Part shown: positions 3,001-6,000 of the stretch, one piece after another
Numbering within the stretch: position 1 is the stretch's first letter
Layout of the letters: each line of letters opens with the position of its first letter
Assembly: GCA_002709565.1 (NCBI GenBank)
Contig: PAPY01000030.1
Location: 50,844-114,843 of the forward strand
Reading direction: 5' to 3'
Length of the DNA: 64,000 bases
From: Legionellales bacterium
GTDB lineage: Bacteria > Pseudomonadota > Gammaproteobacteria > UBA1113
Program-made: the position numbers

Positions 3001-6000
3001 AATCCAAGCCAAGGTAAAAATCACCTACTAGAAGCCCTCGATGCAGAGTATGCGCTGGATATCACCTTGGCAAAAATTCATTTAACACTGGGCAATTATT
3101 ATCGCTTGCGTAATAACGTCGAATATGCTGCAGGCCACTATTTTCAAGTCGCTAATCTCTGCGCAGCCAGTGAAGATTTGCGCGCTCAAGCCAATATCAA
3201 ATATGCATCGTTACAGCGAGAGAGCACACAATCTGCCGTTGAATCTAGCCAGCAAGACACAACAAAAATCATTGCGCATAGCAGTACGTCTTCTAGAGAA
3301 ACACGAAGCTTATCGCTCAAAACTGGCGAATATCAGTTAGTAGCCTGGTATAATACTGTTGAAGATGCTCAAAGAAACGGTTTTGCCTTTCCATCTATCG
3401 ATAGCAGTTCAGATAATGATTCAGAACATGACGAACCTGTTCTCAGTAGTAATCCACTAACCGGTAAACGCAAAACCTCAGATAATCATGAGCCAAGTGA
3501 ACAAGCGCCCAAGCGCATAAAAACACATGACCACGAGCTAAGTGAACAAGCATCCAACGCCACTGCAATTGCCCCTTACACGGATACTCCACAGAAATCA
3601 TTCAGAGGTTATCATGCCTAAACAGTTGAAAATACTATGTGACCGCATCGCGAGAAATGACCATACTGAAACAGAACTTGATCTCAGTGACGCCAAAGTT
3701 TTTGAATATGAGAATGACTTAATTCAACTTGCAAAAGCACTCAAAACTAATACAAGATTAACTAAACTCTCCCTAAAAAACTGCAATATTAGCACAGACG
3801 AACTGATTGCTGTCGCCAATATGCTAATGGCCAATACGACATTAGCATTCATCGATCTTAGCAAAAACGACATCTGCGAGGAGGGTATTCGTGCCCTAAC
3901 ACATGCGCTAACGGTAAATGTGACATTACAATATATCGATGATGAGCGATATGGGCAGCACTTTCCAAAACATCTCTATGAGCCCCTAAAATATAATCGC
4001 GAAGCAGTGGAGCGGCTTAACAATCGTCCGACTTACAATGATGCTGATGATGAGCAGGAACTTAACCGGCGTGTGAGAATACTCGCCAGGCTAAAGCGGC
4101 AACCAAAGGGATTCGCCAACCTTTGTCAACAAATAGCTGACAATACCTATCCGCGAAAATGGCTAAACCTGAGTGGCAAATACCTCGGTACGGAAAACAC
4201 TGGTAAACTTGCAATAGCACTCATGAAAAATACTCGAATAACCCACCTAGACTTGTCAAACTGTTGGATCAGTGAGAGCGGCATTGCTGCCTTAACAAAA
4301 TCCCTCAGCCACAATCTCGCTATTCGCTATATTCGCCTCAGCAACAATTTGTCTATCCCTGATGACCACCCCGAGCGACTGAGGATTCGCAAGATCACTG
4401 TAAAGCGCCGGCGCGAGATCCCTCGCACATTTCACAATAAATACCCTCACGATCATTGCGATGACTATTTGGATCCTAAAATGGCAATGCGGACAAGGCG
4501 GCTAGAAATGCAAGGATTTTTCGCTGCACGACGAAGACAACTACAGACAGGCAGCACCGAGAAACCAGCGCCACGTGGCATCCTAAAATCTCCTTATGCG
4601 GCTAGAAGACATCGAAATAAGCCCAAAAAACAGGTTAGCTTCGCTCCAACGATCCAGATACGGCGATTTAAAACACACCAGATTTAGTACTGCATCAGTC
4701 AAACCGGGCTAACGCCTTGATTTTATTGCGCTTATTCTTGTGAACTCGAAAAAAACCGTTAAAGAAGATAACCTTTCGACTACTATTTCGCAGTAAGATC
4801 TACCAAGTTATACTAGGTTATAACCACTTATACTTGATTTTAGGTATAACCGGGTATAACCTAGTATAACTAGGTATAAGTTAGTCAATCTTCAACAATA
4901 TCGAGGCACAAAAGATGGATCCTATCCAAAACCCTTTCTCCCCAGGGGCAGGCTCCCCTCCTCCTGAACTGGTTGGTCGAGAATCACTCTTGAACCAAGG
5001 CAATATCCTCTATGCCCGGGTCAAACAAAAACTTGCCGAAAAAAGCATCATATTGACGGGCTTACGGGGTGTAGGAAAAACGGTGCTTCTCAATGAGCTA
5101 GAAAGATTTGCTGAAAAGGCTAACTATAAGACTATTTTATTTGAGGCCCATGAAGACAAATCCCTCGCCGAAATGCTCATTCCCCCCTTACGTCAATTAC
5201 TGTATCAACTGGATAAGCTTGCAGGTGCCGGCCACAAAGTAAGACGTGGGCTTGCTGTACTACGCAGTTTCATTAATACCATTAAATTTAAGGCGAAAGC
5301 GGGTGATATAGAAATTAGACTTGATATAGAGCCTGAGATAGGCGTTGCAGACAGTGGCGATCTTGAAGCTGATCTAACGAATTTATTCATTGCAGTTGCT
5401 GAAGCCGCTGAAGAAAAAAATACGGCGATTGCTATCCTCATTGATGAGATTCAATATTTTAGCAGCAAAGAACTCAGTGCTCTTATCATTGCCTTACATC
5501 GCATGCAACAACGTCTATTGCCTATAGTATTAGTCGCTGCAGGGCTACCAATCTTGCCTGGATTAGCTGGAGAAGCTAAAACCTATGCTGAGCGGCTTTT
5601 TCAGTTTCCTCAAATTGGTGCTCTCTCAGCGGATGATGTAGAACAAGCACTACAAGAACCCGTCAAAAGGCATTTTGGTGCCTTCGAGCCTGAAGCAATC
5701 AATGAAATCTATCGCTTAACGGAGGGCTATCCCTATTTTGTTCAGGAATGGGGTTATCAAGTGTGGAACCATGCCAAACAATCACCTATTACGCTAAAAG
5801 ATATTAATGACGCAACCCCTGACGTCATTTCACGCCTTGATAATAACTTTTTTCGAGTCAGGTTTGACAGACTATCACCGAGTGAGCGACGATTTTTGAG
5901 AGCAATGGCCGAAGTGAATAAGCGCTCAATCTCAACCAGCAAGATTGCAGAGATCTTAGGGCTAAAGATCCAACAGACGGGACCTGTGCGATCAAAACTC

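Follow-up and report, generated by a model that had tools for sequence, protein, structure and literature searches.

An inverted array of phased repeats upstream of an ATPase gene

What connects a cluster of short, helically phased repeats with the solitary ATPase gene that follows it? We addressed this question in a 64,000-nt stretch of DNA from a Legionellales bacterium (assembly GCA_002709565.1, contig PAPY01000030.1, positions 50,844 to 114,843 of the forward strand), hereafter called the window, in which the repeats lie directly upstream of a gene for an AAA+ ATPase with a predicted winged helix. The repeat element is real, non-random and tightly coupled to the gene family, its geometry is conserved, and the encoded protein has an AAA+ plus winged-helix fold. 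We propose below that the element probably acts as the operator of the gene.

The sequence-only reading of this region had pointed to four contiguous direct repeats with a period of 10 bp. They are indeed there: taGGTATAAC, cgGGTATAAC, ctaGTATAAC and taGGTATAAg follow each other without gaps at 4841-4880, and Tandem Repeats Finder called the same array at 4842-4879 with a period of 10 and 3.8 copies. Two further related copies had been noted just upstream. Related units do exist at that place, but there are three clear ones and one degenerate one, and they run in the opposite orientation. The whole element is a 4+4 dyad, i.e., two oppositely oriented arrays (4796-4833 and 4844-4881) with a 10-nt A/T-rich spacer between them. 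Because the left-arm units are oriented opposite to the right-arm units, the element also forms a 40-nt imperfect inverted repeat, whose arms (4794-4833 and 4844-4883) are 83% complementary and 10 nt apart. From the end of right-arm unit 4 it is 34 nt to the ATG at 4915, not the 35 bp given earlier.

The motif GGTATAAC was matched 58 times in the window at up to one mismatch, compared with 39.9 expected matches, and seven of the 58 fell within 4807-4880. When the window was shuffled 300 times with its dinucleotides preserved, chains of TATAA/TTATA cores phased at 9-11 bp reached a length of two cores at most. The real window holds one chain of four (4845-4875), one of three (4808-4828) and no others of at least three. 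The array is far beyond chance and is not an AT-rich coincidence. The sequence-only reading had itself considered that the motif could be such a coincidence, occurring at background frequency. Phased chains never exceeded two in the window shuffles; the phased motif is also common in unrelated contigs, as discussed below.

Conservation of the array with the gene family

We inspected 160 nt upstream of the gene in the 80 best loci, computed chain statistics for 83 homologous loci and derived a centre-aligned consensus from 43. Chains were defined as TA[TG]A[ACT] cores phased at 9-11 bp in the 120 nt upstream of the gene, and 1555 windows from the same loci served as controls. Chains of at least two relaxed cores were found in 87% of the upstream regions compared with 0.8% of the controls, and chains of at least three in 55% compared with none of the 1555. 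Throughout 510 kb of locus DNA, all arrays of at least three units except one were located between -160 and -5 relative to the ATG.

Almost all of the 80 loci share one design: two to four (N)TTATAC/G units, a short A/T spacer, two to four GTATAA(C/A) units, and then the ATG. The centre-aligned consensus reads A.TTATA three times, aaTT, and TATAA.T three times, with aa|TT at the centre and the cores at 7, 17 and 27 positions to either side of the dyad centre. A 3+3 arrangement is typical, and the centre lies at a median of 42.5 nt from the ATG. The window copy, with 4+4 units and its centre 76.5 nt from the ATG, is large for its kind. The logo of a single unit is n-T(.94)-A(.98)-T(.77)/G(.15)-A(.96)-A(.71)-C/A-T(.70), and in many loci the last unit is only 5-20 nt away from the ATG.

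The array is also present in the closest relatives (77% identity), whose neighbouring genes differ, and it is kept in plasmid homologues of 35-52% identity, where the cores are shifted. Shifted cores were seen on plasmids of Pseudomonas oryzihabitans (CATAAAC/GATAAAC) and Arthrobacter (AATAAAG), and TATA-type cores on plasmids of Rhodococcus, Clavibacter, Dietzia and Massilia. The repeats are a conserved cis-element that is coupled to the downstream ATPase gene across the 83 loci, whatever the context.

Two variants of the arrangement were observed. On three metagenome contigs (L147, L183, L193), distant paralogues of 354-366 aa (~22% identical) are preceded by six to seven direct GTATAA repeats with a spacing of 11-12 bp, just 5' of the start codons. 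Three loci with Parachlamydiaceae labels (L007, L035, L046) and locus L054 carry a second complete dyad array at about -190 to -125 from the ATG, such that the two copies are ~120 bp, or roughly 11 helical turns, apart. These double arrays, together with a 10-nt repeat (CTTGATTTTA) at 4716 and 4833, raised the possibility of a decayed second array in the window. Local alignment of 4688-4793 with the array scored at chance level (252 of 500 shuffles scored equally well), which rules out a second array there. The individual units and the gene are listed in Table 1.

Table 1 Coordinates of the repeat units, the gene they precede and its putative ribosome-binding motif in the window
Feature	Coordinates	Strand	Sequence and remarks
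Left-arm unit 4, outermost, degenerate	4796..4803	-	AGATCTAC on +, GTAGATCT on -; in 10-bp register, inside arm 4794-4833
Left-arm unit 3	4806..4813	-	AGTTATAC on +, GTATAACT on -; AGTATAAC match on - strand at 4807-4814
Left-arm unit 2	4816..4823	-	GGTTATAA on +, TTATAACC on -; within palindrome GGTTATAACC at 4816-4825
Left-arm unit 1, innermost	4826..4833	-	ACTTATAC on +, GTATAAGT on -
Spacer, A/T-rich, 10 nt	4834..4843	.	TTGATTTTAG; dyad centre between 4838 and 4839
Right-arm unit 1	4844..4851	+	GTATAACC
Right-arm unit 2	4854..4861	+	GTATAACC
Right-arm unit 3	4864..4871	+	GTATAACT
Right-arm unit 4	4874..4881	+	GTATAAGT
GAGG, Shine-Dalgarno-like	4903..4906	+	8 nt 5' of ATG; read directly from the sequence
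AAA+ ATPase gene, 396 aa, C-terminal winged helix	4915..6105	+	Open reading frame (ORF); Walker A G49-T56, Walker B D177-E178

The ATPase

The protein matched the Pfam family AAA_16 (PF13191) with 56.8 bits, passing the gathering threshold of 32.6, and AAA_22 also matched. The sequence-only reading had called the gene Arch_ATPase-type. This holds at the level of the fold but not of the profile score, as the match to ATPase_2/Arch_ATPase (PF01637) reached 24.4 bits and remained below the gathering threshold of 33.2; many homologues have a precomputed PF01637 match. In an AlphaFold2 model (predicted local distance difference test score 77.8), the AAA+ core is joined by a helical lid, and three helices plus a wing form the C-terminal domain, i.e., the winged-helix C-terminus that had been predicted earlier. 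The fold of the model is closest to that of 2qen and 2fna, two Walker ATPases of archaea, and is thus the same as in solved PF01637 members; next come Orc1/Cdc6 bound to origin DNA, TnsC, MuB, MalT and NLR/STAND proteins. Orc1/Cdc6, TnsC, MuB and MalT are ATPases that assemble on DNA. The Walker A and B motifs are invariant in 16 homologues. With these motifs, the modelled winged helix and the DNA-assembling fold relatives, the predicted architecture of the protein is suited to DNA-bound assembly. Pfam revealed no C-terminal sensor repeat or LuxR-type helix-turn-helix in the ATPase, and the protein ends in the winged helix at residue 396.

Profile searches did not place the protein in a described system. 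Against TIGR02928 (orc1/cdc6) it scored 20.9 bits compared with a cut-off of 181 bits. Neither the NCBIfam nor the PADLOC 2.0 profiles gave a family match extending past the P-loop; the P-loop-limited PADLOC matches were PtuA, PDC-S01 and mad8 (E 3e-6 or weaker), and NCBIfam DS41_1 scored 21 bits compared with 370. Membership in MANTIS/Gao_RL, BREX or MADS was ruled out, given that the PADLOC matches are restricted to the P-loop and that these systems have other ATPase families. In the case of MANTIS and BREX, the respective proteins MtsA and BrxC are DUF499 proteins and thus belong to a different family. A literature search on the ATPase family and its relatives returned nothing relevant.

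Distribution and genomic context

An identical protein is recorded for a Legionellales metagenome-assembled genome (MAG). More than 8000 database proteins match the ATPase, the best of them with 65-77% identity, and the family comprises 878 clusters (50% identity, E<=1e-30). Relatives are encoded in 587 stretches of a one-genome-per-species set. The 80 highest-ranking of these 587 are 56-68% identical and carry the labels Legionellales, Chlamydiota, Planctomycetota, Verrucomicrobiota, Acidobacteriota, Nitrospirota, Chloroflexota, Actinomycetota, Bacteroidota, Chlorobi, Ignavibacteriota, Fibrobacterota, Elusimicrobia, Omnitrophica, Gemmatimonadales, Campylobacterota, Deinococcota and several proteobacterial classes. 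Overall, homologues were found under the labels of more than 15 bacterial phyla, beside unrelated genes. They were likewise present in 102 records of plasmids and in a single record labelled as phage, and all of them are annotated only as 'ATP-binding protein'. We consider the ATPase, which is 56-68% identical across phylum labels, to be more strongly conserved than the neighbouring housekeeping protein CydA, whose best non-self match is only 72% identical. On plasmid pROB01 of Rhodococcus opacus B4 (L089), a homologue (38% identical) is oriented divergently from adjacent genes of a Tn7-like element, which encode TnsA-like and DDE transposases.

In the most similar pairs of loci with different phylum labels, nucleotide similarity sets in where the left arm of the array begins and stops at about the stop codon, which delimits a cassette of ~1.25 kb. 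For example, locus L015 (labelled Nitrospirota) and locus L024 (labelled Verrucomicrobiota) are 86.7% identical from -63 to +3; in other pairs, the similarity spans -65 to +1 (L045 and L053) or -63 to -16 (L059 and L076). The immediate neighbours belong to 58 Pfam families upstream and 93 downstream, and no common partner gene was found among the neighbours of the homologous loci. Most loci are on large contigs next to housekeeping genes.

In about one tenth of the loci (e.g., L073 at 104-6333, L017 and L019), a gene for a Type III-like methyltransferase of ~950 aa (PADLOC PDLC03632) lies upstream, followed by the array with the ATPase gene and by a gene for a NERD/UvrD-like helicase of ~700 aa. 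In these three loci the helicase gene starts 6-8 nt past the ATPase stop codon. Six others (L006, L014, L044, L053, L059 and L074) have retained only fragments of the methyltransferase or helicase genes beside an intact ATPase gene. No such remnants were found beside the ATPase gene in the window.

The window copy belongs to a three-gene insertion of ~3.9 kb (2296-6105) between aceE (pyruvate dehydrogenase E1) and cydA(B). The insertion encodes a hypothetical protein of 425/441 aa, a leucine-rich repeat protein and, as the last gene, the ATPase. In two related genomes (L329 and L330), aceE and cydA are directly adjacent without the three genes. The nearest genomes are distant (CydA 68-72% identical), and the exact insertion junctions are not definable from the aceE-cydA comparison.

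A proposed autoregulatory operator

We consider it probable that the ATPase gene has its operator in the 4+4 array at 4796-4881, which probably contains or overlaps the promoter, that the ATPase assembles there cooperatively to regulate its own expression, and that both travel together as the ~1.25-kb cassette. That the ATPase is the binder, that its assembly is ATP dependent and that autoregulation is the outcome are the parts of this proposal that we infer. Since no factor other than the ATPase accompanies the array in every case, the simplest model is that the ATPase binds it, and cooperative binding would be the most economical reading of the repeat pattern. The sequence-only reading had recognized an architecture typical of cooperative binding by a regulator or an initiator. 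Its idea of a conserved site for cooperative binding stands, but the element is a dyad of 4+4 units (elsewhere typically 3+3) rather than a set of direct repeats, and the option of an initiator has become weaker.

The following mechanism is conceivable. The winged helix of the ATPase would read one unit with the consensus (G)TATAA(C/A)T per 10 bp, and with one unit every 10 bp all protomers of an arm would line up along one helical face. Their AAA+ domains could then touch head to tail in an ATP-dependent manner, making binding cooperative along the arm. As the arms are inverted, the short A/T spacer would lie between two oligomers of opposite orientation that face one another. The occupied array may shut off or tune the transcription of the ATPase gene itself, and in the ~10% of loci with a NERD/UvrD-type helicase gene 6-8 nt downstream, that gene might be tuned as well.

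Several observations weigh against this proposal. Associations between the motif type (TATAA or TAGAA) and amino acid residues are spread over the whole protein, the strongest being at residues 74, 243 and 196, and reflect a clade effect that is not focused on the recognition helix. The sole sigma-70-like consensus match between 4600 and 6300 has its -10 element (TATACT) in a left-arm unit, and the promoter cannot be placed. Likewise, no conserved -35 box and no fixed distance from a -10 element to the ATG emerged from the aligned loci, and the spacer consensus is symmetric. Many of the taxon labels derive from metagenome bins and are possibly erroneous. Furthermore, a search of public collections for the array itself (three GTATAAM units at a period of 10 bp), akin to the genome-wide search envisaged by the sequence-only reading, did recover the distant paralogues, but the motif was not specific to the ATPase: a homologue adjoined the array in only 6 of 120 metagenome stretches and in none of 116 viral ones, and most matches were satellites, AT-rich contigs or giant-virus contigs without a link to the ATPase. 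As phased GTATAAM triplets are common in unrelated contigs, a motif array alone is not diagnostic, and the case rests on the direction from the gene to the array. Finally, autoregulation cannot be the whole function of the ATPase, because a protein that targets only its own promoter would have no reason to be conserved to this extent.

What else the module might do is a matter for a bolder proposal, which we regard as unlikely: the 1.25-kb module, with its inverted 10-bp iterons and its ORC/STAND-like gene, could be a self-contained ATP-driven controller that has spread across the bacteria and whose array does more than serve as an operator. The opposed oligomers would then act as a switch, e.g., one that melts or marks DNA in an origin-like manner, or the ATPase would control or guard restriction modules of a Type III-like kind (methyltransferase, ATPase and NERD/UvrD helicase) in an ATP-dependent way and persist as an orphan after loss of the effector. 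If true, ATP-driven controllers with a DNA site of their own would form a class not known before.

Alternative explanations

The operator proposal must be weighed against four other explanations, two of which do not involve binding of the ATPase to the units. It is improbable, to begin with the inverted symmetry, that a base-paired structure rather than the units is the functional feature, be it a hairpin in the mRNA leader, a DNA cruciform or a single-strand hairpin that controls expression or is processed. The window copy does fold as single-stranded DNA, with -20.9 kcal/mol and z = -6.5 compared with shuffles, its arms have the high complementarity given above, and some loci even contain perfect palindromes (L071 with 34-nt arms, L051 with 23-nt arms, and L056). 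Outside the cores, arm units of the same rank are also more alike (0.51) than units of different rank (0.38; Wilcoxon p = 7e-5) or units compared between loci (0.34), though the value of 0.51 is inflated because the dyad centre was chosen by maximising complementarity. However, non-core complementarity averages only ~51%, far below what a conserved stem would need; what is conserved is the TATAA core and the 10-bp register, not the pairing. The distant paralogues have only direct repeats, so that no hairpin is possible there, and Rfam contained no family that the element matched at gathering score (best 28.6 bits compared with 90.8, from generic miRNA-precursor hairpin models). The hairpin potential is better explained as a by-product of the inverted arrays, and the perfect palindromes by occasional arm-to-arm conversion. 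That the units are sites for host factors, i.e., stacked -10-like promoter elements or universal nucleoid-protein sites that allow a transferred gene to be expressed in any host without the ATPase as binder, appears quite improbable. TATAA resembles a -10 hexamer, the only promoter-like match in the 4600-6300 region uses the left-arm TATACT as its -10 element, and the short distance from the last unit to the ATG in many loci would fit very short leaders. Nevertheless, the base after TATAA is T in just 19% of the units (C in 33% and A in 32%), and since T-7 is not kept, the units were not selected as sigma-70 -10 boxes. The variant cores TAGAAC, TAGCA and CATAAAC are even further from the -10 consensus but keep the 10-bp register, inverted arms and strict helical phasing are not required for a promoter, and the array is kept under labels with a different promoter consensus (e.g., Bacteroidota and Chlamydiota).

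The other two explanations give the ATPase a role on the array and differ from the operator proposal in its outcome. The ATPase could be an ORC/Cdc6-like initiator that opens DNA at inverted iterons, with the cassette being a minimal replicator or a remnant of one, which we judge to be very improbable. The gene lies beside inverted repeats as in archaeal orc1-ORB (origin recognition box) origins, there are the plasmid records with homologues, and the distant paralogues have six to seven direct iteron-like repeats. Against this, the aligned loci have no conserved A/T-rich unwinding element or DnaA boxes beside the array, the spacer of only ~10 nt leaves no room for an unwinding element, and conservation stops at the left edge of the array. 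Most loci, moreover, are found on large contigs by housekeeping genes, the window copy itself sits in the aceE-cydA insertion, and the carrier plasmids have typed replicons of their own. It is scarcely probable that the palindrome is a recombination or mobility site through which the 1.25-kb cassette moves, with the ATPase assisting or targeting. The sharp limits of similarity in the cross-phylum pairs, on the left side of the array and at the stop codon, would be in agreement with such a site, as would the extremely varied genomic contexts. Yet no transposase or recombinase accompanies the cassette, neither a second end nor a target duplication was seen, and the box order of attC-type sites (AAC...GTT) is not present. 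The methyltransferase and helicase remnants that flank several loci point to the decay of a larger ancestral context rather than to precise insertion of a cassette.

The operator proposal is of interest because it concerns a large and widespread ATPase family that is annotated merely as 'ATP-binding protein'. The array is the first concrete, testable handle on this family, a DNA site of ~90 bp whose unit, register and symmetry are clear. If the ATPase assembles there as proposed, this might further account for the control of some Type III-like restriction modules.

Other repeats

A second repeat element in the window had been linked to the array by the resemblance of the repeat core to palindromes at 46.3 kb. 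At 46287-46405 a 52-bp unit is repeated in tandem a little more than twice, and each copy contains a 42-nt palindrome (AAGTTATCGCTGATTATA...TTATAATCAGCGATAACTT). The copies are directly upstream of a gene at 44809-46269 (- strand) for a 486-aa ATPase, which PADLOC identifies as the candidate defence protein PDC-S27 (E 1.7e-171). The link is not supported, as there are no 10-bp phased GTATAAC units at this site and the two ATPases are only marginally similar (BLASTP E=0.089). The repeats at 46287-46405 resemble an operator-type element in their own right, which belongs to an ATPase that is distantly related. Both ATPase genes (4915-6105 and 44809-46269) share the habit of having dyad repeats upstream.

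Two tandem repeats elsewhere in the window are probably in-frame protein repeats: one at 43038-43148 (27-bp period, 4.1 copies, 94% matches) inside an ORF at 42896-44620 (- strand), and one at 30734-30812 (36-bp period, ~2 copies) inside an ORF at 30291-31139 (- strand). The window also contains a single giant ORF of 4365 aa at 14495-27592 on the - strand.

Outside the window, phased GTATAAM triplets were seen on ten contigs, mostly of giant-virus MAGs (L136, L142, L164, L211, L235, L237, L247, L274, L303 and L308). These contigs encode members of one related family of 240-335 aa that is rich in Cys/His zinc-finger-like motifs, located 54-126 nt downstream of the triplets in the six contigs checked. 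This family is unrelated to the ATPase.

Comparison with known systems

As far as we searched the literature, an operator-like dyad of 10-bp phased heptamers appears to be undescribed. Three known types of site could be set aside. Iteron-type plasmid origins are expected to have direct repeats of ~17-22 bp by a rep gene, whereas the present array consists of 10-bp units in two inverted arrays, with all-direct repeats only in the distant paralogues; no conserved flanking unwinding element or DnaA boxes were seen, and the loci lie mostly on large contigs with housekeeping genes, unlike an autonomous replicon. An archaeal Orc1/Cdc6-ORB origin was rejected on account of the failing TIGR02928 score, the 10-bp repeats and the lack of an unwinding element. 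Integron attC sites should read RYYYAAC...GTTRRRY and lie 3' of the ORF, whereas the array reads GTTATAC...GTATAAC, is 10-bp periodic and lies 5' of the ORF.

The archaeal proteins PAB2304 (2qen) and SSO1545 (2fna) of Pfam ATPase_2/PF01637 resemble the ATPase in fold, with an identity of only 16-18%. In the literature on these two proteins we found no described function or DNA site.

Small regulators with comparable sites include the Omega repressor of pSM19035 with its heptads and the C proteins of restriction-modification systems with their C-boxes. In both cases, short direct and inverted units precede the regulator's own gene. Omega and C-protein arrays mediate cooperative autoregulation, and C proteins also time the expression of a downstream restriction gene, which parallels the loci in which a NERD/UvrD helicase gene follows the ATPase gene. 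However, Omega and the C proteins are small, of the ribbon-helix-helix or HTH_3 type, and have no ATPase, and the Omega heptads are contiguous at 7 bp instead of being phased at 10 bp.

Among ATPases, MalT acts on decamer boxes, Orc1 on ORB elements, and DnaA both on box arrays of opposite orientation and at the promoter of its own gene. MalT, a STAND ATPase, is similar in that it uses arrays of 10-bp boxes. Unlike the present protein, which has 396 aa, a winged helix, no sensor domain and an array at its own gene, MalT has ~900 aa, a sensor repeat domain and a LuxR-type helix-turn-helix, and activates other operons. ORB elements are 20-35 bp long and flank a long A/T-rich unwinding region, in contrast to contiguous 10-bp units around a 10-nt spacer, and the sequence likeness of the ATPase to TIGR02928 is negligible. 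DnaA offers a further parallel, an ATPase on oppositely oriented box arrays, as in the left and right halves of E. coli oriC, and at the dnaA promoter. It differs in that DnaA recognizes the 9-mer TTATCCACA with its domain IV, while here there are a winged helix and a TATAA-type heptamer, with no adjacent unwinding element; and DnaA is essential and vertically inherited, while the present gene is accessory and horizontally spread. If the ATPase assembles on the array as proposed, bacteria would have in it a compact equivalent of the way in which DnaA and ORC assemble on phased boxes.

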